A stretch of 48,377 bases of DNA from Minisyncoccia bacterium (GTDB lineage: Bacteria > Patescibacteriota > Minisyncoccia > Phycocordibacterales > UBA2100): the NCBI GenBank assembly GCA_965659025.1, contig CBFHTW010000003.1, positions 1 through 48,377 of the forward strand. The letters run 5' to 3'. Shown here one piece after another: positions 10,704 through 41,235 of this stretch (its first letter is position 1; the number at the start of each line of letters is the position of its first letter). Made by a program: the position numbers and the translations under genes. The notes below the pieces were generated by a model that saw only the letters and a list, made by a program, of their open reading frames with translations, ran no database searches and was not told the DNA's origin.

Positions 10704-11462
10704 ATGACGAAGAATACGATCGGGATACCGTTCCATCTCGCGCTCGCGGCGGCGCTCACCGAATCCGGCATCGCCAAGTGCGTGCCGTGTTTCAAGACGC
10801 TTTCGCATCTCGCGGCGATGACCAAGCTCGCCGACGGCCACCGCGCCGTCTTTGACGCGTTTACCAACGCGGCCAAGAGCCTGGGCTTCACAGGCGATAC
10901 ACAGATCGTCCGGCAGACATCGGTCTCATTGATGTCCAAGGATTATTCGCTCATCACCAGGAAGTTCGGCATCCCGTCGGACATCCTCGGCGCCTACGTA
11001 CCCACGAAACAGGTGCCGTATGACCAGGCGATCATCGTCGCGCTCAAGGCGCTCGCCGACACCGACGGCGACAAGAAGGCGTACGAAGTTCTTGCTCAGC
11101 TCGTCGGCGAGACGAAGCTGGACGAGGAATGTCGCACGCCGATCTTCAACGCTCTCTACGAGAGCGCGAAGAAACTCGGCATGACACAGCACAGTGTTGT
11201 CATCACGGCGGCCGCGGCGATTATGTCCAACGAACCGAGTACGGTTGCTCAGCGCTTCGGCGCCGACATCGTCCGGATCAAGGAAATTATCACTGCGCTC
11301 AAGTCCAAGCCGGCCAGTACCGACACGAAGCACGCTTCGTCGTCGCAGAAACCGTCCCAGCAGAAACCGAGCAAGCATCAGCCCACCTCGGTTCTGCCCA
11401 AGACGGCGCCGGCACAACAGTCGCAGTCTCATGCTCGCATGACCGGCGGCGACCGCTCCTGA
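10704..11462 (+). CDS. Hypothetical protein with internal ~100-aa duplication and low-complexity tail
   Basis: SD-like AAGGA upstream, own promoter-like sequence (TTGACT 10600, TATACT 10625) and terminator. Confidence 0.7.
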   Translation: MTKNTIGIPFHLALAAALTESGIAKCVPCFKTLSHLAAMTKLADGHRAVFDAFTNAAKSLGFTGDTQIVRQTSVSLMSKDYSLITRKFGIPSDILGAYVPTKQVPYDQAIIVALKALADTDGDKKAYEVLAQLVGETKLDEECRTPIFNALYESAKKLGMTQHSVVITAAAAIMSNEPSTVAQRFGADIVRIKEIITALKSKPASTDTKHASSSQKPSQQKPSKHQPTSVLPKTAPAQQSQSHARMTGGDRS

Positions 11463-11507
11463 TCCCTTCCACAAGGATTGTTTTAACTCACCGATAACAC
11501 GGTGAGT

Positions 11508-11546
11508 GTGGCCAGTTCGCCTCGCGCGAACTGGCCACTTTCTTTT
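11508..11546 (+). terminator. Intrinsic terminator
   Basis: 13-bp stem GTGGCCAGTTCGC/GCGAACTGGCCAC followed by TTTCTTTT. Confidence 0.8.
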
Positions 11547-11557
11547 CCTCACATAAT

Positions 11558-11586
11558 TTGCAAAAGAGCTGTATTATTCATACCAT
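11558..11586 (+). promoter_or_regulatory. Sigma70-like promoter of the tRNA locus
   Basis: TTGCAA-N17-TACCAT just upstream of the duplicated tRNA 5' end. Confidence 0.5.
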
Positions 11587-11592
11587 CCAGAA

Positions 11593-11641
11593 CATTGGGG
11601 GATCGCCTGCCTGCGCAGGCAGGTCTAATATGGTAGAACAT
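11593..11641 (+). pseudogene. Degenerate duplicate of the tRNA-Gln 5' end interrupted by an 18-bp palindrome
   Basis: CATTGGGGGATCG[CCTGCCTGCGCAGGCAGG]TCTAA(TA)TGGTAGAACAT versus CATTGGGGGATCGTCTAATGGTAGGACAT at 11883-11911. Confidence 0.8.
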
Positions 11642-11900
11642 GTGGTTTGTTTATTTTCTTCGGCACAGACAGAAGAGATGGTACTACGTAGGTAGTACGA
11701 ATAATCTGATCAGACGACTTGGTGAACATAATGCTGGAAAAGTTAAATCTACAAAAGAGTATAGGCCACTAACGTTGGTTCATGAACTTTCGTTTGATAC
11801 AGAGAGGGAGGCGCGACTTTTTGAGCATAAAGTAAAGAAACAAAGATTGCTAAAAGAGCAAATTATTCGTACTATCGAGAAGCATTGGGGGATCGTCTAA
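11640..11900 (+). CDS. Small stand-alone GIY-YIG nuclease
   Basis: FVYFL..YYVGSTNNLIRRLGEHN..EARLFE. The last codons are encoded by the tRNA 5' end. Confidence 0.88.
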   Translation: MWFVYFLRHRQKRWYYVGSTNNLIRRLGEHNAGKVKSTKEYRPLTLVHELSFDTEREARLFEHKVKKQRLLKEQIIRTIEKHWGIV

Positions 11901-11956
11901 TGGTAGGACATCAGGTTTTGGTCCTGAGTATCGGGGTTCGAGTCCCTGTCCCCCAG
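11886..11956 (+). tRNA. tRNA-Gln(TTG)
   Basis: Acceptor TGGGGGA/TCCCCCA, anticodon arm TCAGG-TTTTGGT-CCTGA, T arm CGGGG-TTCGAGT-CCCTG. CCA not encoded. Confidence 0.95.
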
Positions 11957-13552
11957 CAAGCAAGGATTTTTGGAGTAGATTTCTCCATTATCCTTTGTAT
12001 CTCCTTGGTTTTCGGGCGGTTCTAACCCAGACGGAAGGTCGCGGATTATGTCCGCGGCTTTTCGTATTGGAACGAGCAGATTATCCAATGAAATCGTGAG
12101 TTTTCCGTCGAGAAGCGTGTAGTTCCAACCCAGCGCGGAGAATATCTCCCGCTTCGCCTCAATGAGCTTCTTTTCGCTTGCCTTGCTGAACGCGAGCGGC
12201 GCTTTCTCCGCGAAGTTGAAGCCCCGCTCGGCAATCTCGAGCCACGTGTCTATGCGCTTGTCTGTATCGCCCAGAAGCGCCTTGAGGCGTGCTTTCTCCG
12301 CAAGCAACGTCTCCTTGCGACCGCGGAACTCGTGCTCGTCAATCTCCAAGTTCGCTCGCATATCTATCAGGTTGTCTATCTTCCGCACACAGGCGTCGTA
12401 TTCGCGGCGCTGATTGCCCATCACCAACTCGCGGTCAGACACTTCCTGCCCGTTCTGTTCCTTGAGGCGCGACATCGCCCACGTCGTAAAGTCAGCGGGG
12501 ATGTTGAGCTTCTTCAACTCCGCATCTACCTGCTTCTCAAGTGCCTTTTCCTCGATGGACTTCTGCGAGCAGTTCGGGTTCTTCTTTTTCGTGCAATGGT
12601 AGTACGTGTAAGTTGCTACACCGCCGCTGGCGAGCTTTTTCATTTTTTCCTCGGCCGTAATGAGGGCTCCGCATTCACCACATCGTATCGGCCCCCTGTA
12701 CGCCATATCGCGTCGCTCCTTGGGGCGTGGGTTGCCGCGGCGACCGAGCAGGAACTGGATGCGGTCGTATTCCTCGCGGCTCATCAGCGGTTCGTGTAAT
12801 CCTGTGTACCACTTGCCGCTACCGACAGGGTACTCGAACTCACCGTAATAAAAGGGGCGGGTAAAGATATTGTAGATATTGCTGCGACTTATCTTCTTTC
12901 CGTTCAATGAACGCAGACCCCATTCATCTGTAGCAATGCGCCATATCTGCGGTGGCGTGTGATTTCCTGTGAGCATCAGGTCTACCATCTTCCGCAAAAG
13001 CGGGAAGCGTTCGGTGTCCGTATAGACCTTCTTCTTGCCGCGCTCTTCGTACTTGTCATTTTTGTAGCCAAGCGGAGCAGGCGCTGGGTAATAGCCCATC
13101 TTCGCTTTCTGTTCAAGACCGCGCTTCACATCGCGGCCTTTCTTCGCACTTTCGTACTGCGATTGCGAGAGCGCCATCTGTAGCATCCAAATACCCTCTG
13201 GTGAGTTGTTCTCGAAGTGGTACGTAGCGAACTTGAGGTCTGCAAGCTCTCCTGTGCGAAGCAGGTATGTAAGCGTGCTCGCGTCTACTTCGTTGCGGGA
13301 GAGGCGGTCAGGATGCCAAGCGAGAAGACCTGCACGTTCACCGTTGCGGATACGCAGGAGCATATCGCTGAACTTCGGACGGTTGTATGGAACGAAGGCG
13401 CTCTTTTCTTCGTCCACGAACTCAATGTCCAAATCAGGGAAGCGTTCGGAAAGCTGCGCTCGTTGCGCGGGTATGGAAAGTGCCTGTTTCTCCTTATCCT
13501 CGGAGGATTTGCGGAGGTAGGCAAAATAGCGGGTTTTTGCTGGTGTTTTCAT
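11897..13552 (-). CDS. Large serine recombinase (integrase)
   Basis: YLRKS catalytic motif, DRLSRN, recombinase domain, Zn ribbon CGECG..YYHC, coiled coil. C-terminus (GDRDSNP) is antisense to the tRNA. Start placed at ATG 13552. Confidence 0.93.
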   Translation of the reverse strand: MKTPAKTRYFAYLRKSSEDKEKQALSIPAQRAQLSERFPDLDIEFVDEEKSAFVPYNRPKFSDMLLRIRNGERAGLLAWHPDRLSRNEVDASTLTYLLRTGELADLKFATYHFENNSPEGIWMLQMALSQSQYESAKKGRDVKRGLEQKAKMGYYPAPAPLGYKNDKYEERGKKKVYTDTERFPLLRKMVDLMLTGNHTPPQIWRIATDEWGLRSLNGKKISRSNIYNIFTRPFYYGEFEYPVGSGKWYTGLHEPLMSREEYDRIQFLLGRRGNPRPKERRDMAYRGPIRCGECGALITAEEKMKKLASGGVATYTYYHCTKKKNPNCSQKSIEEKALEKQVDAELKKLNIPADFTTWAMSRLKEQNGQEVSDRELVMGNQRREYDACVRKIDNLIDMRANLEIDEHEFRGRKETLLAEKARLKALLGDTDKRIDTWLEIAERGFNFAEKAPLAFSKASEKKLIEAKREIFSALGWNYTLLDGKLTISLDNLLVPIRKAADIIRDLPSGLEPPENQGDTKDNGEIYSKNPCLLGDRDSNPDTQDQNLMSYH

Positions 13553-13700
13553 ATACGCGAAAGGGACGGTCTGGTTGACCCACTTACGATGCACCCCGAG
13601 GGATACCCATAGTGGCAGACCGCCCCTTTCGCGCCGCTATGGGTATAGAAAAATCTCGGGGGATACGCAAACGTAAGCAGGTCAACATAGCCATTATACC

Positions 13701-14825
13701 TCATTTTCCGTCAATAAGGCGCTTCAGGAACGCTCGTACGTCGTCAGGTATCTCGACCGTGCCGTTGCTGCTTTGGAAGTCGCGCAACTCTCGCACGATG
13801 TCTACGGCGCGTTCTACGCCCATACTACCGTAGCCGTATGCACCGAACGTGGTGCCGATGTTCTCGTGTCCGAGCGTCAAACTGATAGCCCGTTTTTCTT
13901 CCTCGGTGAGGCGCATCTTACTCATCAAGCTCACCACCAAGTGTCGGTACGAGTGAGGGTGGTAGTACTTCACGCCCGCGCCTTCGCACCGCTTCTCAAA
14001 TATCTTCCGAGCGCTTCCCGTATCGCTCCAAAAAGAGCGGCTGATACTTTCCTTACTGTAGGCCTTCTTCGTACTGATTTCGCTTGAGGTGGCGGGGAAG
14101 ATAGGGTCGTCTGGAGCAAATCCCTTGTTCTCCAAATACTCATACCACTCCAAGAAGTAGCGACTGGGTTCATCCCATCCGATAGGGAAAAATGTCGTGA
14201 TGATGGTCTTCGAGTTCTTCGTCCGTACGCCGTCCGCGGGGTTCTGGTGGATGCGGCGGGTCGCCTTGTCAAAACTCTTCATTTTGAGCGAGATGATGGC
14301 GCTGATGCGACAGCCCGTTATGAGGGCGAAGCTGATGAGCGCCCTGTCGCGTCTGCCTATCTCTGTCGCTGGGTCGATATTCTCGATTACTTGCTGCACC
14401 TCCTCAAGGGTAGGCATCGCTTTCGTTGTGCCCGCGAGGACTATCTGCATATCCTTCTTCGAGATACGCAGGAAATCGGCATCTCCTTTGACGAGCTTCT
14501 GGCTATACTCGGGCTGCCCAGCAAGCCAGAGGAAGAACTCTTTTACGCGCCGCAGGTAGTGATACCGCGTCGCGGGCTTGAGCGTTCCGTCGGGCGTCTT
14601 CGTCGCTTTCCGAATGAGCCACCCGCAGAATGCCATCGCTTTTGTCTTATCGAAAGTCGCGAAGTCCTCGTTATCGGAGAAAACCTGCCACTGACCGATG
14701 GCGTCGGCGTAGTCGTTTACGGACGCTTCCGTGAAGCCCTTTGCTCCGCGCAGGTGGTCGAAGAAGCCGCGCTTTGCCTGCTCGTTTCGGTATGGTGTTT
14801 TGTCTTGATGGCTGGGATTGCTCAT
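13701..14825 (-). CDS. Tyrosine recombinase/integrase
   Basis: RDRA..TGCRISA, HSYRH and LGH..TT..Y catalytic residues. Confidence 0.9.
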   Translation of the reverse strand: MSNPSHQDKTPYRNEQAKRGFFDHLRGAKGFTEASVNDYADAIGQWQVFSDNEDFATFDKTKAMAFCGWLIRKATKTPDGTLKPATRYHYLRRVKEFFLWLAGQPEYSQKLVKGDADFLRISKKDMQIVLAGTTKAMPTLEEVQQVIENIDPATEIGRRDRALISFALITGCRISAIISLKMKSFDKATRRIHQNPADGVRTKNSKTIITTFFPIGWDEPSRYFLEWYEYLENKGFAPDDPIFPATSSEISTKKAYSKESISRSFWSDTGSARKIFEKRCEGAGVKYYHPHSYRHLVVSLMSKMRLTEEEKRAISLTLGHENIGTTFGAYGYGSMGVERAVDIVRELRDFQSSNGTVEIPDDVRAFLKRLIDGK

Positions 14826-15060
14826 ATTCGTACAAACGGACATTTACATCTCAAATAACGATTTCTGATAGTACATCCACGTTTAGTCCTCGGTAGCGCA
14901 GGGCTGCTCTATTTTGTCCGATTGGCGGACGAAAGGGGGGCAGTCAGGTGCCACCAATCGGAACCCCTGTGCTAACGAGGACGTGGATGTACCATCTGGC
15001 TGTTCCCCTTTCGCATACTCGTGCGCAAGAGAGAACGAGTGCCAGACATAGCGTACATCT

Positions 15061-16851
15061 ATGTCTGAAAAATCATTACCATTACACAAAATCCAACAGG
15101 TAAAGGGGCGGCCGCTTTTGCATTGGGTCGGTAAGCGCCCTCTCGAGAGCGTTCAGTTTTTTCCTGCGCAAGAGAAAGAGGTATATGGCGACAAGAACGC
15201 CAAGGATTTCAATAAACTATTTTGGGGCGACAACCTCCAAGTGCTCTCGCATCTCATCAAGGATTACCGTGGCGCGATAGACCTCATTTACATTGACCCG
15301 CCGTTCGACAGCGCTGCGGACTACGTGAAGAAGGTCGTTATTCGTGGCCAAGAACTGAAAGGGGTGCAGCAGAGCGTCTTGGAAGAGGCGCAATATACCG
15401 ACATCTGGGAGAACGACGAATACCTCCAGTTTATATACGAGCGTCTCATTCTGATGCGGGAGCTTCTTTCCGAAAAGGGGAGCATCTACCTCCATTGCGA
15501 CAGTCATAAAAATGCCCACCTCCGCCTCATCCTTGATGAGGTGTTTGGAGAGAGCAACTTCCGCAACGAAATCGTGTGGCATTACCACGATAAGTTCGCT
15601 ACTGGTGGCAAATCGCTCGACCGAAATCACGACACCATTTATCACTACTCAAAGACCCCTGTCTTTACTGGGAACGAGATACGGGTCGAGAAGGAAGAAG
15701 CGACGCGCCGTGCGCTCCGTAAGAAGGTGAACGGCAAGACCGTGAACGTCTTGGACGACGAGGGCAATAAAATCTATGGTGAGTTCACGGACAAGCGCAT
15801 TGACGACGTATGGGACATCGGGAGGACAATCTCGAAGAACGAATATCTCGAATATCCGACGCAGAAAAAAGAAGAGCTCGTCGAGCGCATACTTCGCTAT
15901 GGCTCGAACGAAGGTGATATGGTCGCAGATTTCTTCGTGGGTTCTGGTACAGCCTGCGCGGTCGCGCAGCGGATGGGTCGTCGCTGGCTCGGATGCGACA
16001 TCAACGTAGGTGCAGTACAGACCAGCACCAAGCGGCTCGCTAAACTCGTCGAAGACCAACTCGCCGAAAAGCCCGAGAGCTTCAAGGGTTCGCTCGGCTT
16101 CAAGGTACTGAATGTGAACGAGTACGATGTGTTCAAGAACGAACTGGAGGCCAAGGAGGTTGTTATGGAGATTTACGGCGTAGAGCCAGTGAAGCGCTCA
16201 TACTTCGACGGCGTATTGGACGGCGACTATGTGAAAGTCCTGCCGCTCAATCGCGTGCTCGGCAAGATGGACATTCGCTCGCTCCTCAAGGGCATCGGTA
16301 ATGAACTCGACAACTTCACGAAGAAGACAGTAAGCAAGCACGGCGAAGCGATATACGAGGAGGATGTCATTGTTATTTGCTCGGGTATGGAGCTCGATGT
16401 ACGTGATTTTCTCAAGAAGGAAAATAAAACGGGCGTTTCGATAAAGCTATACGACATTCTGACCGATACCAAAGACCTCATCTTCAAGCAGTACCCAGAA
16501 AGTAGGGTAAAAGTCGTCGCGAAAGGTACGAACCTCGCTGTGGAGATTGAGGAGTTCTATTCGCCGCTCCTGATGCGCAAACTCGAACTCGAGAACGGCA
16601 AGATGCTCAAGAAAGAGCGCGAGGCGAAGGTCAGCGACTTCAAGCAAATCGTCGATAGCGTAGCCATTGACGTGGACTACGACGGTAAGCTCTTCAACGC
16701 AGAGGTGATGGACTTGCCGAACAAGAAAGAGGTTATCGTGGGCTCGTACGAGTGGGAGTACGCAAAGAAAGGCAAGTATACGGTCGCTATAAAAATCATA
16801 GACGTGCTCGGGGAGGAGTTCTTCGAGACGTACGACGTGGAAGCGAAATAA
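15061..16851 (+). CDS. mod: Type III R-M DNA methyltransferase (Mod)
   Basis: IYIDPPF catalytic motif precedes DFFVGSGT SAM-binding motif (beta class); YPTQK; upstream of res. Confidence 0.9.
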   Translation: MSEKSLPLHKIQQVKGRPLLHWVGKRPLESVQFFPAQEKEVYGDKNAKDFNKLFWGDNLQVLSHLIKDYRGAIDLIYIDPPFDSAADYVKKVVIRGQELKGVQQSVLEEAQYTDIWENDEYLQFIYERLILMRELLSEKGSIYLHCDSHKNAHLRLILDEVFGESNFRNEIVWHYHDKFATGGKSLDRNHDTIYHYSKTPVFTGNEIRVEKEEATRRALRKKVNGKTVNVLDDEGNKIYGEFTDKRIDDVWDIGRTISKNEYLEYPTQKKEELVERILRYGSNEGDMVADFFVGSGTACAVAQRMGRRWLGCDINVGAVQTSTKRLAKLVEDQLAEKPESFKGSLGFKVLNVNEYDVFKNELEAKEVVMEIYGVEPVKRSYFDGVLDGDYVKVLPLNRVLGKMDIRSLLKGIGNELDNFTKKTVSKHGEAIYEEDVIVICSGMELDVRDFLKKENKTGVSIKLYDILTDTKDLIFKQYPESRVKVVAKGTNLAVEIEEFYSPLLMRKLELENGKMLKKEREAKVSDFKQIVDSVAIDVDYDGKLFNAEVMDLPNKKEVIVGSYEWEYAKKGKYTVAIKIIDVLGEEFFETYDVEAK

Positions 16852-16854
16852 CGT

Positions 16855-17478
16855 ATGGAAATCGTCTACGTACTTACGAATGAAGCGATGGCTGGCTATG
16901 TGAAGATAGGCAGGACTACCACGAGCTTGGAGCAGCGCATCCGTGAGCTCAACTCCTCAACGAGCGTCCCGCTCCCGTTCACGGCGTTCTATGCGTGTAC
17001 AGTGCAGGACAGCACGTTCGTCGAACATCAGCTCCACGACGCTTTCGACGATAGTCGCATCAATCCACGGCGCGAGTTCTTCCGCATTGCGCCCGAGCGC
17101 GTTGTGGCGGCACTCAAGCTCGCACAGATAGAAGACATAACCCCGAAGCGTGATTACGTGGAGATGCCCGAAGACCAAGTGGCGCTCAACCGCGTCCGTG
17201 CCATACGAAGCAAGTTCAACTTCGGTATGGTTGATATTCCTATCGGTGCAGAACTCTCTTTCAGTCGTGATGAGAATATAAAGGCGCAGGTCGTTGACAC
17301 ACAATCCAAGAACTCCATTGAGTTCAGGGGCGAGATAACGAGCTTGTCGCGTGCCGCACAGAACATACTTGGTTTTGATTATGGTGTCGCGGGTACGGAC
17401 TACTGGATGTACGAGGGCGAGACACTCGACGAGCGCCGCAGACGGTTCGAGGGCGGCGAGGAACCTAATCAAGAATAG
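16855..17478 (+). CDS. GIY-YIG nuclease (T5orf172-like) with possible C-terminal RAMA-like domain
   Basis: IVYVLTN..YVKIGRT..RIREL..REFF. C-terminal SLSRAA..GTDYW.YEGETLDERR. Confidence 0.8.
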   Translation: MEIVYVLTNEAMAGYVKIGRTTTSLEQRIRELNSSTSVPLPFTAFYACTVQDSTFVEHQLHDAFDDSRINPRREFFRIAPERVVAALKLAQIEDITPKRDYVEMPEDQVALNRVRAIRSKFNFGMVDIPIGAELSFSRDENIKAQVVDTQSKNSIEFRGEITSLSRAAQNILGFDYGVAGTDYWMYEGETLDERRRRFEGGEEPNQE

Positions 17479-17480
17479 CG

Positions 17481-20012
17481 ATGGACAGCTCCTTCCTACA
17501 GAAAATCAAAGAACGGGTCGGCGAGTGGCGAAGTGGTGGCTACCAAGGCGTCGAGCAGGAAACCCTTACCATCCTCAAGTACATCAAAAGCGTACGTTTC
17601 CTCCACGCGCCGCAGGTAGAGGCACTTGAGACATACATCTATCTCAAGGAGGTCGTTGGTAATAAGCACTCACTGTCGGTCTTCCGCTCGCTTTTTGAGG
17701 ATGAGCGCGAACTCCTACGGGCACTCGGTACCTCTGATGCTGATGCGCTTGACATCGCGTACGACAAAGCGAAAGACGCGCGTATACAGGCGCTCCTTGA
17801 GAGTAAGTTCGGAAGCTCCGATTACGCCAATCAGGTCTATGCGCTGGCGATGGGCTCGGGCAAGACGATTTTGATGGCAACGATGATGCTCTACGATTTC
17901 GTGCTCTCGTACTACCATCCCGAGGACGAACGCTTCGCCAAGAACATACTCGTCTTCGCGCCCGATACGACCATCATAGACAGCTTGAAAGAGATAAAGA
18001 CCTTCGACTATACGAAAGTGCTCCCGAAGGGTTATCGCAATATCCTACTCAACATCAAGTATCACTATCTCGAAAGTCCCGATACACCGCTTTCTCCCAT
18101 CGGCAACTACAACATCATTGTCTCGAACTCACAGAAGATAATCCTCAAGCGCCGCAATACCACGAACCCTACAAAGTCGCTCTTTGCCGAGAAGTCGAAG
18201 CTCGAACGCCAGATGAGCGAGAACGGGCGTCTCGCCACTATCCGTCAACTCGAACGCCTCGCTATCTTCGTGGACGAAGCGCATCACAGCTACGGCAAGA
18301 CGATGGATAACGAGCTCAAGCGCACCCGAGAGACGATTGAATATCTCCACGGCAACAAGCCGCTCGTTTCGGTCGTGAACCTCACGGGTACGCCGTATGT
18401 GCAGAACAAAATGATTGCCGATGTCGTATATCACTTTGGCCTCAAGAGCGGTATTGAGAAAGGCATCTTGAAGCAGGTGCGTATCTTGGATTACGGGAAC
18501 GTGCGCGAGGAGAAGTTCGTGGAGGATGTCGTTGAGACATTCCTAAACGAGTACGGAGAGCACCGTCTCGAAGGCCGACTGCCCAAAATGGCGTTCTATG
18601 CAGCGAGCATCGCTGACCTTCGTGGCTTACGGCAGGTGGTAGAGCGTACGCTTGCCAGTAAGGGGATAGCCCTCGACAAGGTACTCGAATATCACACGGA
18701 AGCGGAGGAGAATAAGGATGAGTTCCAAAAGCTCGACACCGCCGAAAGTAATAAGCAGTTCGTACTTCTCGTCGGCAAGGGAACGGAGGGCTGGAACTGT
18801 CGCTCGCTCGTAGCGTGCGCCCTTTACCGCGAGCCAAAGAGTACCATCTTTGTCCTCCAATCCTCGACGCGCTGCCTTCGCGCTATCGGCGACAACTCCA
18901 CTGTTGCCCGCATCTTCCTCTCAAAGGATAACTACAAAGTGCTCGATAAGGAGCTCAAAAATAACTTCGATACCAGCGTCGCAGAGCTTTCCGCTCAAGA
19001 CCAGAAAGCGATTGACCACGAGCTCAAGGTGGAGCGCCGCAAGAAGGTAAAAGTAAAGAAAGTACTCAAAGAGATGGCGACCGCGGAAGCAGTGGATACG
19101 AGTGGCATCAAGCTCGACTTTAGCAAGTTCAAGGCATCAGAATATCTTTCATTCGTTGGCGAGGGAGGTATCCTCGTGAACGATGATGGTCGTGCGGGGT
19201 ACACCGAGGCGCGTGCAAATCGGCGAGTGGAGGATACACAAAATCTGACATTCTACGAGATAGCGGAGGTCATAAATCGCTATACGCACCTATCGTGCTC
19301 CTCCATTGCGGACATCATCGAGCGGAGCGGCAAGACACGCACCGAGCTCGTACAGCAAGCCAATGAAAGTCCAGCACTCATTCCATTCCTCGTGCAGGAA
19401 GTTCTCGAAAAGGCGTACCGCTACGAATGGCGCGAGGAGACGATTGAGGAAGAACTTGAGCTCACAAAGCTCTACCCGTTCAAGATAACCGTCCAGCACG
19501 ACCGTAATATCCTCGTCGTCTACAAGGAGCAAGAGGAGCAGGACGGCCACAAGAGCCGCATCGGTTTCCATATCAACCCGTACAACTTCGACAGTAGCGA
19601 CGAAAAGGACTTGTTCCGCTATCTCCGTGATTATCTCAAGGAGGACGAAGCCGTGGTGGACGTGTATTTCACGGGTGGCGTGATAGACGCGATACACAAC
19701 GATTTTTATTTCGAGTATTGGAACCCAGAACGTCAGTGCTACGCACGGTATTTTCCTGACTTCTTGGTAGAGACGACGAAGGGTCGCTATCTCATCATCG
19801 AGGTAAAGAGCAATGCCGAGCGTATGGACTACGAGGCAAACGCCAAGAACTACACGGGCAAGGTGGAGGAGCTCACGAACGAGGTCTTTGCCAAGCAGGT
19901 CGGCTTCGAGGAGTTCCAAAAGACAAACGCGAACTTCGAGTACCGCATCATTTTCAACGCAGGTATCCAAGCGGAGCAAGCACGGTTGCTCGAGGAAGTG
20001 CGCTCGCTATGA
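17481..20012 (+). CDS. res: Type III R-M restriction subunit (SF2 helicase plus PD-(D/E)xK nuclease)
   Basis: AMGSGKT, DEAH, TGTP, EGWN, and C-terminal YFPDFLV..IIEVK. Confidence 0.9.
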   Translation: MDSSFLQKIKERVGEWRSGGYQGVEQETLTILKYIKSVRFLHAPQVEALETYIYLKEVVGNKHSLSVFRSLFEDERELLRALGTSDADALDIAYDKAKDARIQALLESKFGSSDYANQVYALAMGSGKTILMATMMLYDFVLSYYHPEDERFAKNILVFAPDTTIIDSLKEIKTFDYTKVLPKGYRNILLNIKYHYLESPDTPLSPIGNYNIIVSNSQKIILKRRNTTNPTKSLFAEKSKLERQMSENGRLATIRQLERLAIFVDEAHHSYGKTMDNELKRTRETIEYLHGNKPLVSVVNLTGTPYVQNKMIADVVYHFGLKSGIEKGILKQVRILDYGNVREEKFVEDVVETFLNEYGEHRLEGRLPKMAFYAASIADLRGLRQVVERTLASKGIALDKVLEYHTEAEENKDEFQKLDTAESNKQFVLLVGKGTEGWNCRSLVACALYREPKSTIFVLQSSTRCLRAIGDNSTVARIFLSKDNYKVLDKELKNNFDTSVAELSAQDQKAIDHELKVERRKKVKVKKVLKEMATAEAVDTSGIKLDFSKFKASEYLSFVGEGGILVNDDGRAGYTEARANRRVEDTQNLTFYEIAEVINRYTHLSCSSIADIIERSGKTRTELVQQANESPALIPFLVQEVLEKAYRYEWREETIEEELELTKLYPFKITVQHDRNILVVYKEQEEQDGHKSRIGFHINPYNFDSSDEKDLFRYLRDYLKEDEAVVDVYFTGGVIDAIHNDFYFEYWNPERQCYARYFPDFLVETTKGRYLIIEVKSNAERMDYEANAKNYTGKVEELTNEVFAKQVGFEEFQKTNANFEYRIIFNAGIQAEQARLLEEVRSL

Positions 20013-20128
20013 CCGAGCCCGAGCCGTTATCGGGGGAGGACATTGGAGAGCTTGCGGAGTTCTTCGACCTGCTGGCGCGGTTCGATTACGAGGATAAAAT
20101 AAGAGAAGGGGCGACACTTGACAAGTAG
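20009..20128 (+). CDS. 39-aa small ORF coupled to res
   Basis: ATGA overlap with the res stop. Reads MTEPEPLSGEDIGELAEFFDLLARFDYEDKIREGATLDK. Confidence 0.5.
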   Translation: MTEPEPLSGEDIGELAEFFDLLARFDYEDKIREGATLDK

Positions 20129-20147
20129 GTATATTGTGTAGTATACT
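20118..20147 (+). promoter_or_regulatory. Sigma70 promoter of the DGR target gene
   Basis: TTGACA-N18-TATACT. Confidence 0.75.
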
Positions 20148-20304
20148 CGTCCCAAGTTCTTTGACTTTCAACTTGCAGGTTTGCCGCAGCAGAGAGCGGC
20201 CGATATTCGGCCTCCGTCTGCTACGGCAAACCCTCGACCCGAGGGAGCCCGCTGGCACCAATGCGTACTTGTCCGAAAGGGCTCATTCGCAAAGGAGAAA
20301 AACT

Positions 20305-20883
20305 ATGAGCGACCTTACGCTCGATGTTGGTCTTGCCGCCAAACTCAAGGTGGCGTTCGCACGCAACGGCTGGACGGAGCAACTGATTGACGCGGCCTGC
20401 GAAGGCGACAAGCTCGGTCAGTTCAAGCAAGTCCTGCTCGGCCACGCCGCCATCAATGTCGTCGAACACGTCATTGACTGCGACGCGCAACCCTTCGTTC
20501 CCGATGGCTGGTCTGTCGAGGAGCATCAGAAGGGCGGCGCGTTCAAGTGGGACAAAGCAACCCAGAAGGACGCCCTCTACCTCTCGAAAGGTCAGGCGGG
20601 CAGCAAGTACATCGAGGGCAACAAGCTCCGCAAGGAGCTCTCGGACAAGAGCACGCCCGTGCTCAACGCCAACGTCCTCGACTACCTGCTCGCCAACCCG
20701 CACCTCATCCCCGAGGAGTGGAAGGGCAAATACGTCTTCTTCTGGGGGACGGTGTACCGCGGCCGCGGTGGCGGCCTGTACGTCCGCTGCCTCTGCTGGG
20801 GCGACGGCAGGTGGGACTGGAGCGGCGACTGGCTCGGCAGCGGCTTCGACGGCAACGACCCCGCCGCGGTGCGTGCAAGTTGA
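20305..20883 (+). CDS. DGR target protein (192 aa) with C-terminal variable region
   Basis: SD AAGGAG before ATG 20305. The last ~41 codons match TR with adenine-only differences. No signal peptide evident. Confidence 0.92.
   Translation: MSDLTLDVGLAAKLKVAFARNGWTEQLIDAACEGDKLGQFKQVLLGHAAINVVEHVIDCDAQPFVPDGWSVEEHQKGGAFKWDKATQKDALYLSKGQAGSKYIEGNKLRKELSDKSTPVLNANVLDYLLANPHLIPEEWKGKYVFFWGTVYRGRGGGLYVRCLCWGDGRWDWSGDWLGSGFDGNDPAAVRAS
20754..20878 (+). repeat. DGR variable repeat (VR)
   Basis: 125-bp ungapped match to 21201-21325 with 19 mismatches, all opposite TR adenines. Confidence 0.97.
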
Positions 20884-20934
20884 ACTTGGTGCTCTGAACC
20901 TCTGAACCCTTGGGCTCTTGGTTCTTTGCACTTT

Positions 20935-20960
20935 GACCCGCGCTGGAAACGGCGCGGGTC
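20935..20960 (+). other. Post-VR hairpin with GAAA loop (DGR target-recognition element and/or terminator)
   Basis: GACCCGCGCTG-GAAA-CGGCGCGGGTC, ~55 bp after VR. Confidence 0.7.
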
Positions 20961-20967
20961 TTTGCTT

Positions 20968-20976
20968 TGCTATACT
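20968..20976 (+). promoter_or_regulatory. Extended -10 promoter, candidate start of the TR RNA
   Basis: TGCTATACT about 225 bp upstream of TR. Confidence 0.45.
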
Positions 20977-21200
20977 CAAGAAAGGCGGTAGGTGAATACG
21001 CGGGCGATTACGGTTTCCCGCTACCGATGCCAGTGCGCGTACGTCGAGAGCGTTCCCGATTACGGTTTGGAGCGGAGTGGCGCACGAGGCACTCAAAAGT
21101 ATGAAGATACTTGGTGTGGGATGCTATGCGAGTGTAGCTCGCGAATACGATACAACCTCAAGAGTATTCAAGAGGTGGTGGTACGGACGGCATCCCATAC

Positions 21201-21325
21201 GAACCGCAACCGCGATGGCAACCTGTACGTCCGCTACCTCTACTGGAACGACGGCAGGTGGAACTGGAGCAACAACTGGCTCGACAACGACTTCAACGGC
21301 AACAACCCCGCCGCGGTGCGTGCAA
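21201..21325 (+). repeat. DGR template repeat (TR)
   Basis: Adenine-rich copy of VR with 11 AAC codons, followed by hairpin ACCCCGC-TAACT-GCGGGGT at 21341-21359. Confidence 0.97.
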
Positions 21326-21346
21326 CTCTCTTCACTTCTCACCCCG

Positions 21347-21739
21347 CTAACTGCGGGGTTGAGTTTTGGTGAGCTGCCCGCTCCAACCGCCGAGCATCTT
21401 GCCGATTTCCTCCACCTTCAAGGAAAGCAGGCCGTACTTGTTCGTATCAATAGATTTCGTCTCCCACAACACCATCAGGAGCACTTTGAGTGTATCTGTC
21501 TTTCGTATCGCTGCGCGGACGTAGGGGCGTTTTTCCTCTCGCGAGAGAAAACTCGCCGATGCTATCATTTCCATAATCTCAATGAACAATGTATCTATAC
21601 GCTGACCGAGTGAGTGCCTATGGAGTTTGGGCAGTATTTGATAGAACGCGTACCACTGGAGGTACGCCGCTTTCACGCTCTGTAAAAGAGGCAAGAGCTT
21701 CGGGGGGGGGGTAGATTTATGGCTATCAAACTCGCTCAT
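21347..21739 (-). CDS. avd: DGR accessory variability determinant (Avd-like four-helix bundle), opposite strand
   Basis: 130 aa, basic, LPK..R..LG..I and EIGKMLGGW motifs. Start placed at ATG 21739. Confidence 0.85.
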   Translation of the reverse strand: MSEFDSHKSTPPPKLLPLLQSVKAAYLQWYAFYQILPKLHRHSLGQRIDTLFIEIMEMIASASFLSREEKRPYVRAAIRKTDTLKVLLMVLWETKSIDTNKYGLLSLKVEEIGKMLGGWSGQLTKTQPRS

Positions 21740-22720
21740 TCCTACGAGAGTATCATCTCGCTGGATAATCTCCTCGAAGCGTGGTGTGAGTTTGTGCGCG
21801 GCAAGAGAAAGCGGAAAGATGTGCAAGAGTTCGAGCTTCGCTTGATGGATAACGTCCTCTCACTCCACAGGGATTTACGCGAAAAGACCTACACCCATTC
21901 TGACTACGAGGCGTTTAGCATCTCCGACCCTAAACCGCGCAACATACATAAAGCGAGTGTGCGCGACCGTCTCCTTCATCACGCGATTTACCGTCTGCTA
22001 TATCCGTTCTTCGACAAGGGTTTCGTGGGAAGTTCGTACTCGTGCAGAAAGAGTAAGGGCACGCATAAAGCGATTGAGCACTTTCAGCAGCTCGCGTATA
22101 GCGCATCTCATAATCACACGCGCACTGTGTGGGTGCTGAAATGCGACGTGCGTAAGTTCTTTGCATCCATAGACCAAGAGCGTCTTCTGCGGATACTCGA
22201 GACGCGCATACCAGACAGCGAAGTACTTTGGCTTCTCGGGCAAATCGTACGCAGCTTCGAGAGTACGGGAACGGGCTTCGGCTTGCCCCTCGGGAACCTG
22301 ACCTCGCAGCTCCTCGTGAATATCTATATGAACGAGTTTGACCAGTTCGTGAAGCACACGCTCAAATCGAAGGCCTATGTGCGATACGCGGACGATTTCG
22401 TACTCCTATCTCGAGACAGGGCAGAACTTGAGCAGCAACTCCCGCGCATCGAGGCGTTTCTTTGGGACGAGCTGCGGCTTACGCTCCACCCCGACAAAGT
22501 GTTCATCAAAACGCTGGCGTCAGGCGTGGACTTTCTCGGGTGGGTGCATTTCCCTGACCATCGCGTTGTCCGTACGACCACCAAGCGTCGTATGCATCGC
22601 CGTCTCGAGCAGATGGAGTGGAAGGAACAGAGCGTCCAGTCGTATCTTGGCCTCTTGAGCCACGGTAATGCGGCGAAGCTACAGCAGCGGATTAGGCGGC
22701 AGCAAGCAGCTCGGGAATAG
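21719..22720 (+). CDS. DGR reverse transcriptase
   Basis: RDRLLHHA, KCDVRKFF, GLPLGNLTSQ (DGR-type GxxxSQ), YVRYADD and DFLG motifs. No maturase or endonuclease extension. Confidence 0.96.
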   Translation: MAIKLAHSYESIISLDNLLEAWCEFVRGKRKRKDVQEFELRLMDNVLSLHRDLREKTYTHSDYEAFSISDPKPRNIHKASVRDRLLHHAIYRLLYPFFDKGFVGSSYSCRKSKGTHKAIEHFQQLAYSASHNHTRTVWVLKCDVRKFFASIDQERLLRILETRIPDSEVLWLLGQIVRSFESTGTGFGLPLGNLTSQLLVNIYMNEFDQFVKHTLKSKAYVRYADDFVLLSRDRAELEQQLPRIEAFLWDELRLTLHPDKVFIKTLASGVDFLGWVHFPDHRVVRTTTKRRMHRRLEQMEWKEQSVQSYLGLLSHGNAAKLQQRIRRQQAARE

Positions 22721-22915
22721 CGATTTTGTAGCGAAACTCGGACTTTCCCTCCAAAAGGACGGTTCTAACTTCGTCCAATGCCCGCAGCCGCGTAAAGACT
22801 CGCAAGGCCTCGTCCACGCGGCTTCGCCAGTCGTGCAAGTCGATATTGTGCGTACATATCCAAAGTAGTAGTCTTTACGCGAGCCACGTGGTGAGTCCGC
22901 GAACTTTACGTGGCC

Positions 22916-23185
22916 ATGTATATGTATTGGACATACATTCTCGAAAACCAGGATGATAAAAGTTGGTATATTGGATATTCTTCCGATCTGAAACAACGGC
23001 TTAAAACACACCAAGCAAAACGGGGTGGTCAGACAACCAGTCGAAAAGAAAATTGGAAGTTGATGTATTGTGAGGGATATTTAAGCAAAGCAGATGCGGA
23101 AGGCAGAGAACGGTTTCTAAAAAGCGGTGCGGGTCGGAAGTTTATAAAGAAGCAACTTGTAAATTATTTAAGCCAATCAGTTTGA
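22916..23185 (+). CDS. Small stand-alone GIY-YIG nuclease
   Basis: WTYIL..WYIGYSSDLKQRLKTH..AEGRERFLKSGAG. Confidence 0.88.
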   Translation: MYMYWTYILENQDDKSWYIGYSSDLKQRLKTHQAKRGGQTTSRKENWKLMYCEGYLSKADAEGRERFLKSGAGRKFIKKQLVNYLSQSV

Positions 23186-23229
23186 GATAGATTCCCTGGC
23201 CGGACAGGCGGACTCCGAGGAGCATAAAT

Positions 23230-41099: not shown

Positions 41100-41235
41100 G
41101 TGACCTCCGAATGTTTTTGGGTACGGAATTTTTCTGCTGAAAAATTCCTCCATCCTCACGCTCTGCCTGCCCTGCATGCGCAGGCATGGCAGACAGGCGT
41201 CGCGTTGCGGAGTCCCAAAAACACTCGGTGGTCAC
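41100..41235. repeat. Structured palindromic element, copy 2
   Basis: Outer IR GTGACC..TGTTTTTGGG / CCCAAAAACA..GGTCAC, inner GGAATTTTTC-TGCT-GAAAAATTCC, CTGCCTGCC..GGCAGACAGG then CGTCGCG as in copy 1. Confidence 0.8.

Follow-up and report, generated by a model that had tools for sequence, protein, structure and literature searches.

The 48,377-nt contig CBFHTW010000003.1 of the Minisyncoccia bacterium assembly GCA_965659025.1, referred to here in its whole length as the window, contains a single transfer RNA (tRNA) gene, a tRNA-Gln(UUG), into whose 5' end runs a small open reading frame (ORF) coding for an 86-amino acid (aa) GIY-YIG nuclease. The host genome is a metagenome-type assembly of 533 kb in 39 contigs, with 40 tRNAs. 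The nuclease gene is the only ORF in a unit of ~360 bp, which we call the cassette, and the part of the tRNA that is duplicated is its 5' part: the ORF is preceded by a tRNA-like partial copy, here called the decoy or pseudo-copy and numbered by the nucleotides of tRNA-Gln, and is followed by the intact tRNA. The GC content of the ORF region is 0.34-0.42, versus ~0.6 in the flanks (50-nt windows). Layouts of this kind recur at tRNA genes across ultra-small bacteria (the candidate phyla radiation, CPR), and this recurrence suggests a widespread selfish element.

The original prediction held that the ORF is bracketed by direct repeats of about 29 bp from the tRNA 5' end. Alignment of 11551-11648 with 11840-11918 bears out the repeat, with 66 of 77 aligned columns identical and a local alignment score of 55 against a maximum of 20 in 100 shuffles, and revises its length, as it spans tRNA nt 1-33 and a further ~45 nt on their 5' side, where the downstream copy has the final codons of the ORF. 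The downstream copy supplies the HWGIV and stop that close the ORF and begins the functional tRNA, as had been read from the sequence, with the stop lying 15 nt into the tRNA and tRNA nt 1-15 doubling as the codons W-G-I-V and TAA. The upstream copy is split exactly between tRNA-like nt 10 and 11 by the predicted 18-bp palindrome, which is perfect, and is interrupted a second time by a 2-nt AT insertion. The start codon occupies the place of tRNA nt 25-27 and its A and T align with nt 25-26, so that the upstream copy does provide the AT of the ATG. This copy had also been described as lying beside a promoter; promoter-like hexamers are indeed present (Table 1), but a simple native tRNA promoter is not what is found, as the ~45 nt 5' of the pseudo-copy are homologous to the ORF 3' end and are probably, on the strength of this alignment, the tail of an older cassette copy.

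Table 1. Features of the tRNA-Gln cassette and its surroundings. Positions are those of the window.
Feature	Position	Strand	Details
Terminator-like hairpin and T-run	11508..11548	+	13-pair stem at 11508-11538, then TTTCTTTTCC; closes the upstream 252-aa gene
Left limit of cassette region	11508..11548	+	marked by the terminator-like hairpin
Promoter-like hexamers	11548-11586		scan: CTCACA-18-TATTAT, 11548-11577; by eye: TTGCAA (11558)-17-TACCAT (11581)
ORF-tail remnant	11551..11595	+	shares homology with the final ~45 nt of the nuclease ORF; aligned with 11840-11885
Pseudo-tRNA nt 1-10 (TGGGGGATCG)	11596..11605	+	10/10 identical to tRNA nt 1-10
Palindrome CCTGCCTGCGCAGGCAGG	11606..11623	no strand	perfect, 18 bp
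Pseudo-tRNA nt 11-33 with 2-nt insertion at 11630-11631	11624..11648	+	family D5; overlaps the first three ORF codons
GIY-YIG nuclease ORF (86 aa), stand-alone UPF0213/SLX1-like domain	11640..11900	+	PF01541, E 1.5e-14
Intact tRNA-Gln(UUG)	11886..11957	+	ARAGORN; Rfam, 59.1 bits
Separate ~10.8-kb island, not part of the cassette	11958..22788		at the tRNA-Gln 3' end; run X2 contig joins across
Second small GIY-YIG gene	22922..23185	+	~135 nt 3' of the tRNA after island removal (3'-flank type)

A search of 11400-12100 with Rfam (E up to 1) returns nothing on the leader or the ORF, only the tRNA and a chance mir-128 match on the terminator hairpin. The uninterrupted tRNA is the only RNA element there besides that chance match, and a group I intron with a homing endonuclease was therefore rejected. 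Folded as RNA or as DNA the leader is indistinguishable from shuffles (z = -0.65 and -1.54, respectively), and no particular RNA structure is supported.

The 86-aa protein matches the GIY-YIG family PF01541 with 54.5 bits (cut-off 22.6), and a whole-genome scan agrees. Y5, Y16, G18, R26 and H30 do not vary among 21 sequences, and E62 hardly does; these are residues of the active-site type and include the conserved Tyr, Tyr, Arg, His and Glu of the GIY-YIG active site, with their individual catalytic roles assumed. The closest solved structures are the UPF0213 proteins BH0048 (PDB 1zg2, E 3.5e-9) and EF2693 (PDB 1ywl, E 1.2e-6), followed by a weaker match to the SLX1 nuclease domain (7cq2, E 1.4e-3). 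The intron-type endonuclease model TIGR01453 is not close, scoring 17.9 bits versus a cut-off of 56 over residues 3-39 only. Pfam detects neither a second domain nor a DNA-binding domain, which agrees with the nuclease-only element that had been proposed, and on these comparisons the protein is a stand-alone UPF0213/SLX1-like GIY-YIG nuclease domain. Such genes are currently annotated only as 'GIY-YIG nuclease family protein'. The ORF is constrained, with ratios of nonsynonymous to synonymous substitution (dN/dS) of 0.08-0.24 in the listed pairs with computable dS, synonymous sites being saturated in most pairs.

Could the layout be a product of chance similarity or of an assembly error that joined a tRNA fragment to an unrelated ORF? 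The assembly is of the metagenome type and in 39 pieces, and the palindrome does break the assembly graph in run X7. Against this, positions 11000-11921 are covered, with 0-1 differences, by contigs of four runs from four studies, of which one is probably the source of the window and the other three are independent. As the structure is reproduced in three independent assemblies it is not an assembly artefact, a check that the original prediction had called for. The repeat score far above shuffles and the presence of the same architecture in 38 of 41 related loci and at 43 metagenome sites (both below) point the same way, and we regard this explanation as refuted.

The architecture recurs at tRNA-Gln in relatives. 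A locus scan by protein similarity, based on the 12 closest sequences and on one genome per species, yielded 40 loci from many classes of the phylum. A tRNA-Gln (UUG or CUG) follows the ORF on the same strand in 36 of them, at -49 to +137 nt from the stop codon; three of the remaining four are cut by a contig end and the fourth comes from another phylum. The tRNA-duplication context, on which the prediction was to stand or fall, is common to the homologous genes almost without exception. Several of the 20 homologues in the protein collection end in HWGIV, HWEIV, HCGVV, CPIV or CGIV, which is the tRNA 5' end read in frame. The exact 14-nt stop/tRNA overlap class of the window is shared by seven loci, and the stop codon precedes the tRNA in 25 of the 36 loci with a tRNA, so that the overlap, and with it any loss of the stop codon by RNase P cleavage, is a minority feature.

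The leader is constrained as well. Within 130 nt 5' of the start codon the palindrome is present in 38 of 41 loci (window included), always between tRNA-like nt 10 and 11, and in 29 of these 41 it is the exact 18-mer. Rather than a mere break in the upstream copy, as it had been taken to be, it is a near-invariant component at a fixed position, and also a dispersed repeat. The 10 nt to its left equal nt 1-10 of the local tRNA in 28 of 35 loci, despite at least 10 acceptor variants among the hosts, and at least 12 of the 14 nt to its right match the local tRNA in 26 of 35; the longest pseudo-copies reach nt 35 and run through the anticodon (L031). Over distances at which synonymous sites are saturated a neutral 18-mer would not be kept exact, and the palindrome and its tRNA-like flanks are therefore either selected or continually renewed. 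Variant palindromes carry ~4 G-U-type versus 3 disruptive changes as counted by eye, a ratio that does not separate a role as RNA from a role as DNA. In all four pairs compared the homology begins near pseudo nt 1 and stops 0-9 nt beyond the tRNA 3' end. L029 and L032, one of the closer pairs (dS 0.65), have by eye the same leader between pseudo nt 1 and the ATG, and are 89% identical in the upstream gene and 92% in the unit. At locus L042 the first 10 nt of the decoy depart from the local tRNA at three positions and agree with the acceptor type seen in other hosts (L044), possibly a sign that DNA was transferred or that the tRNA was replaced.

The association with tRNA genes extends well beyond tRNA-Gln. 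A profile of the subfamily run on 401 sampled genomes of the phylum finds matches in 256, often several per genome, with a copy number of 0-11. We examined the 29 best loci and 60 further ones in rank order. A same-strand tRNA lies between -60 and +200 nt from the stop codon in 20 of the 29 best and 33 of the 60 further loci, or 53 of 89 combined, and the survey thus finds small GIY-YIG genes at tRNA 5' ends as had been anticipated; the chance of such adjacency is ~1% by our own arithmetic from the host genome (40 tRNAs x 261 nt / 2 x 533 kb). Nineteen tRNA identities are involved. In 16 of the 20 and 29 of the 33 loci, respectively, a pseudo-5' copy of the adjoining tRNA beats all 100 shuffles, and in some subfamilies (Asp, Val, Ala) this copy extends to the T-loop. 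Insertions of at least 8 nt interrupt the pseudo-copy in 23 of 34 loci, at nt 0-87 and most commonly at nt 9-37, and are mostly GC-rich hairpins; some belong to a common arm family, for example CCTGCCTGCCGGCAGGCAGG, and others differ, some having UUCG or GAA loops. Some cassettes have long pseudo-copies without a hairpin, for example L112, L152 and L171.

Ten of the 60 further loci lie ~80 nt 3' of a tRNA, and a mirror-image layout, in which a pseudo-3' part follows the ORF, is found in 7 of 22 such 3'-side genes. When tRNA labels are placed on the ORF tree, which is poorly resolved, 52 label changes are needed versus 82-92 in 200 shuffles, and in the subset not chosen by motif 50 are needed versus 64-74 in 300 shuffles; by this measure the ORF clades cluster by tRNA identity, a specificity of subfamilies for their target tRNAs.

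The distribution of the cassette is patchy. The original prediction proposed a comparison with empty sites in relatives, and 17 of 19 tRNA-Gln loci there have no GIY gene directly 5' of the tRNA; when filled and empty loci are compared within one genus (L019 vs L014 and L006) only the tRNA aligns. Decayed and scar forms also occur. The ORF is truncated at 3 of the 40 loci. A metagenome scan for the 26-nt junction matched 119 contigs, of which 80 were fetched, giving 84 sites. The full cassette with tRNA-Gln is present at 43 sites, a nuclease gene followed by the contig end at three and a nuclease gene for which no tRNA was found at one; at 14 (of 76 assessable) the palindrome is followed directly by the tRNA, an ORF-less scar, at 15 neither nuclease gene nor tRNA was called, and eight are too short to judge.

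Ten of these 15 'neither' sites are full-length tRNA-Gln copies with the palindrome at 10/11, some with a second hairpin in the anticodon loop or T-loop. Hairpins were removed in silico from ten loci, namely nine full-length sites (L222, a duplicate of L205, being excluded) and L245, after which ARAGORN calls a tRNA at the hairpin-bearing copy in nine of the ten. In seven of the ten an intact tRNA-Gln with this same anticodon precedes that copy at close range, and the hairpin-bearing copies are for this reason disabled duplicates and not the working gene. Older ORF tails 5' of the decoy, seen in the window and at L026, L060 and L063, suggest repeated insertion or tandem duplication. As a separate observation, in the disabled tRNA-Gln duplicates of L214, L223 and L230 the anticodon loop has also received a clean 18-bp hairpin insertion, their second, either at 35/36 or at 37/38; position 37/38 is where tRNA introns canonically lie in archaea and eukaryotes.

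These gain and loss data bear on the idea that the arrangement is a conserved, non-mobile property of the host, in which a housekeeping nuclease is co-expressed with tRNAs, for example to repair heavily transcribed tRNA genes, and the partial copies arise from slippage. Purifying selection on the ORF, the commonness of the family (256 of 401 genomes), the syntenic cassette in close relatives such as L029 and L032 and the unchanged cassette in four runs from four studies would all be expected of such a gene. A housekeeping function is harder to reconcile with a patchy presence even within one family (the 17 of 19 tRNA-Gln loci that have no GIY gene directly 5'), with a copy number that ranges from 0 to 11 per genome, with the frequent truncated ORFs, ORF-less scars and tandem remnants, with a composition that is AT-rich relative to the host, and with the presence of the gene at different tRNAs in different genomes. 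We consider it improbable.

A more complex picture is presented by the palindrome, which is not confined to cassettes. The exact 18-mer is found in 10 of the 401 sampled genomes, with five copies in the host genome and up to 15 elsewhere. The host genome has 12 copies when up to three mismatches are allowed, just one of them adjoining a GIY gene; members of this family (18-20 bp) are located at 41171-41188 of the window and on contigs C1, C2, C5, C10, C13, C14, C17, C19, C24 and C31. The window itself has two matches with at most two mismatches, versus none expected from window shuffles. The variant at 41171-41188, CCTGCATGCGCAGGCATG, is also nested in the palindrome of L051 and present in the T-loop of the tRNA-Gln duplicate at L215. 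A variant is seen in a similar sequence context at host contig C13:7980-7997, the contexts being compared by eye.

Palindromes are nested within palindromes at L040, L045, L051 and L060, copies also sit centrally in other hairpins, and at 16 of 17 palindrome loci examined there is no GIY gene close by. A 23S ribosomal RNA (rRNA) gene contains one copy (L066 1501-1518, genome G104; Rfam large-subunit match 1-2221). On host contig C10 (12266-12454), between tRNA-Pro(GGG) and tRNA-Ala(GGC), there is a duplicate of the tRNA-Pro 3' part without an ORF, the T-loop of which is split by two adjacent palindromes. Clean 18-bp insertions without target duplication are found in the D-arm, the anticodon loop (35/36, 37/38) and the T-loop of tRNA-Gln duplicates. 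Three other identities were tried for the palindrome and rejected: a DNA uptake sequence, as there are too few copies per genome, an intrinsic terminator, as no T-run follows it, and snap-back filler DNA, as it is not derived from its flanks.

Such findings raise the alternative that the hairpins are themselves the system, short palindromes being the mobile or fragile unit, in the manner of REP or MITE-type repeats, and the SLX1-like GIY-YIG protein a structure-specific nuclease that cuts or mobilises them. tRNA genes would then be struck since cloverleaf DNA offers hairpin loops, the duplications would come from repair of palindrome-induced breaks, and the survivors would be genomes that had regained an intact tRNA. 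The multiple copies of the exact 18-mer in the host genome and elsewhere, the near copies of which only one in 12 is beside a GIY gene, the clean insertions at three tRNA loops or arms, the nesting, the copy in the 23S rRNA gene, the ORF-less hairpin-split tRNA-Pro duplicate and the presence of SLX1 among the nearest solved relatives all fit this alternative. It is less easily squared with the 16 of 17 palindrome loci that have no GIY gene nearby, or with the absence of this palindrome from most genomes that have the GIY family (256 vs 10 of 401), though other hairpin sequences occur. Nor does it account for the hairpin-free long pseudo-copies (L112, L152, L171), and from a purely structure-specific enzyme one would not expect ORF clades to cluster by tRNA identity. 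On balance we think it unlikely.

The reading that we favour, with a probability of roughly 0.6, is that the locus is one member of a large family in this phylum, a selfish cassette of site-specific, homing-like character whose core is a stand-alone UPF0213/SLX1-like nuclease and which occupies tRNA genes but keeps one intact tRNA. It draws on the fixed site at tRNA-Gln, the constant place of palindrome and decoy, the constraint on ORF and leader, the sharp ends of the unit, the recurrence at many tRNAs, the clustering of ORF clades by tRNA, the patchiness with decayed and scar forms, the foreign base composition and the invariant active-site-type residues. The cassette consists, in 5' to 3' order, of a promoter-proximal decoy (nt 1-33 here), a GC-rich palindromic hairpin that splits the decoy (here between nt 10 and 11), a gene for an 80-90-aa GIY-YIG protein and an intact tRNA, the ORF starting where the decoy ends and the tRNA abutting or overlapping the stop codon. 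Movement, cleavage specificity, promoter use and the role of the hairpin are what we infer beyond this. A plausible scenario is that the cassette, sitting within the tRNA transcription unit, would be co-transcribed with the tRNA, which RNase P would free, and would cost the host little in that it carries or regenerates a complete tRNA. Homing-like spread would proceed through a nuclease break in an unoccupied or neighbouring tRNA gene that is repaired from the occupied copy, with the highly conserved tRNA sequence as the homology for break repair. The hairpin would be a selected cis-element, and candidate roles for it are the interruption of the repeat, which would prevent deletion of the ORF, the destruction of the nuclease site in the decoy, and service as a structured substrate for the nuclease.

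Several points weigh against this scenario. With no DNA-binding domain, sequence-specific homing by the protein alone is doubtful. The intact tRNA would regenerate any target within the tRNA, leaving the cassette open to cleavage by the nuclease that it encodes. The sequences flanking the palindrome on either side follow the tRNA variants of the host, which is not easily explained by a donor-derived insert, and close pairs such as L029 and L032 look vertically inherited from their sequences. The palindrome, with copies at unrelated sites and in ORF-less tRNA duplicates, may have dynamics of its own. No allele without the ORF was found among the contigs of the four runs, contigs being prone to drop rare variants, and the 26-mer junction has no match among viral contigs. 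Phage records give just two weak Listeria-phage matches, both unannotated, and no phage context.

A broader form of the selfish cassette reading is that these are phylum-wide minimal selfish elements in tRNA genes, composed of an 80-90-aa GIY-YIG gene and a hairpin-marked decoy, which survive through a replacement tRNA segment and come in 5'-side and mirror-image 3'-side forms. The hairpin would be a structured substrate or an immunity mark, and the elements could be the commonest mobile DNA of these genomes, driving duplication and turnover of tRNA genes. This we advance tentatively, at somewhat less than an even chance.

Among known systems there is a parallel with Seg-type homing endonucleases. 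The Seg and I-TevI enzymes carry a long DNA-binding region, whereas the cassette protein is the catalytic domain alone, and the duplicated tRNA 5' part and conserved hairpin belong to the cassette. SegB, in the tRNA gene cluster of T4, is described as a free-standing GIY-YIG homing endonuclease of T4-like phages (PMC2330249). The two are alike in having a GIY-YIG domain, a stand-alone gene at tRNA genes and a patchy presence at a fixed site, and each would be expected to spread when a break is repaired with the occupied allele as template. Islands and prophages that carry integrases insert at tRNA genes, regenerate an intact tRNA and leave a partial copy at the other end; the cassette resembles them in its tRNA site and in the regeneration, but it duplicates the 5' part, is only ~360 bp and has no recombinase. 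UPF0213 and SLX1 proteins are like the cassette protein in having a single GIY-YIG domain and a length of ~100 aa, and we know of no tRNA-linked context or decoy-plus-hairpin leader for them.

Insertions with homing endonucleases have been reported in rRNA genes of the same bacterial group, as short insertions at the top or base of stem-loops, some of them with GIY-YIG proteins that were judged sparse and not spread by homing (PMC11270868). That study concerns rRNA genes, and the phrase 'tRNA gene' is absent from its main text. From its description these are, like the cassette, selfish insertions in structural RNA genes of these bacteria; the target RNA of the cassette differs in being uninterrupted. 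The dispersed palindromes of REP/RAYT and MITE-like type are short and GC-rich, and multi-intron and split tRNA genes exist in archaea. The palindrome taken alone resembles the former in being many dispersed copies of one short palindrome, though it has only 18 bp, and the hairpins at D-arm, anticodon-loop and T-loop positions of tRNA-like sequence recall the latter, except that they sit in duplicates beside an intact tRNA (7 of 10) and show no evidence of splicing.

A literature search, outside which subscription journals and supplements lay, found no account, for this bacterial group, of small GIY-YIG genes that adjoin tRNA 5' ends and are accompanied by duplicated parts of the tRNA, and the tRNA-linked nuclease cassette appears to be undescribed. 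The genomes of this group are tiny and usually have one gene per tRNA; well over half of those sampled carry small nuclease genes of this kind, and most examined copies are at tRNA genes. If mobile, the cassette would rank as a very small self-propagating unit, being ~360 bp long and encoding no more than a catalytic domain, which raises the question of how its site is chosen without a DNA-binding domain. It would also mirror, on the 5' side, the familiar use that integrases make of tRNA 3' ends. Mobility could further explain the hairpin-split tRNA fragments of the group and the short insertions in its structural RNA genes, and would provide a testable pair of enzyme and substrate, the 86-aa protein and the 18-bp palindrome in its tRNA context.

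An island with its own recombinases is integrated at the 3' end of the same tRNA-Gln. In a contig of run X2, from another population, tRNA nt 72 is joined to the sequence found at window position 22789, and CAGC is present at both island junctions. Since this contig bypasses the island, the nuclease cassette is present with or without it and the island is separable, which sustains the contrast with integrases drawn in the original prediction. The island encodes, by Pfam, a large serine recombinase, a tyrosine integrase, an N6/N4 DNA methylase, a T5orf172 protein, a ResIII helicase-nuclease and a reverse transcriptase, and looks like a defence-type island. The serine recombinase ORF (11897-13594, minus strand) passes the left edge of the island and continues antisense through the tRNA. 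The tRNA fragment is not repeated at the distal end of the island, nor did a search of the rest of the window find a repeat of it.

Beyond the island is another small GIY-YIG gene, which has 21% identity to the cassette gene. The order GIY, tRNA-Gln, GIY, which results when the island is left out, is also found at L108 and L115. No pseudo-tRNA is detectable beside the second gene (22922). We note that this gene is followed, at 23180-23225 of the window, by a ~30-nt motif (GTTTGAGATAG..GGACTCCGAGGAGCA) split by a 15-nt near-palindrome, and that in relative L024 the motif stands directly after tRNA-Gln.

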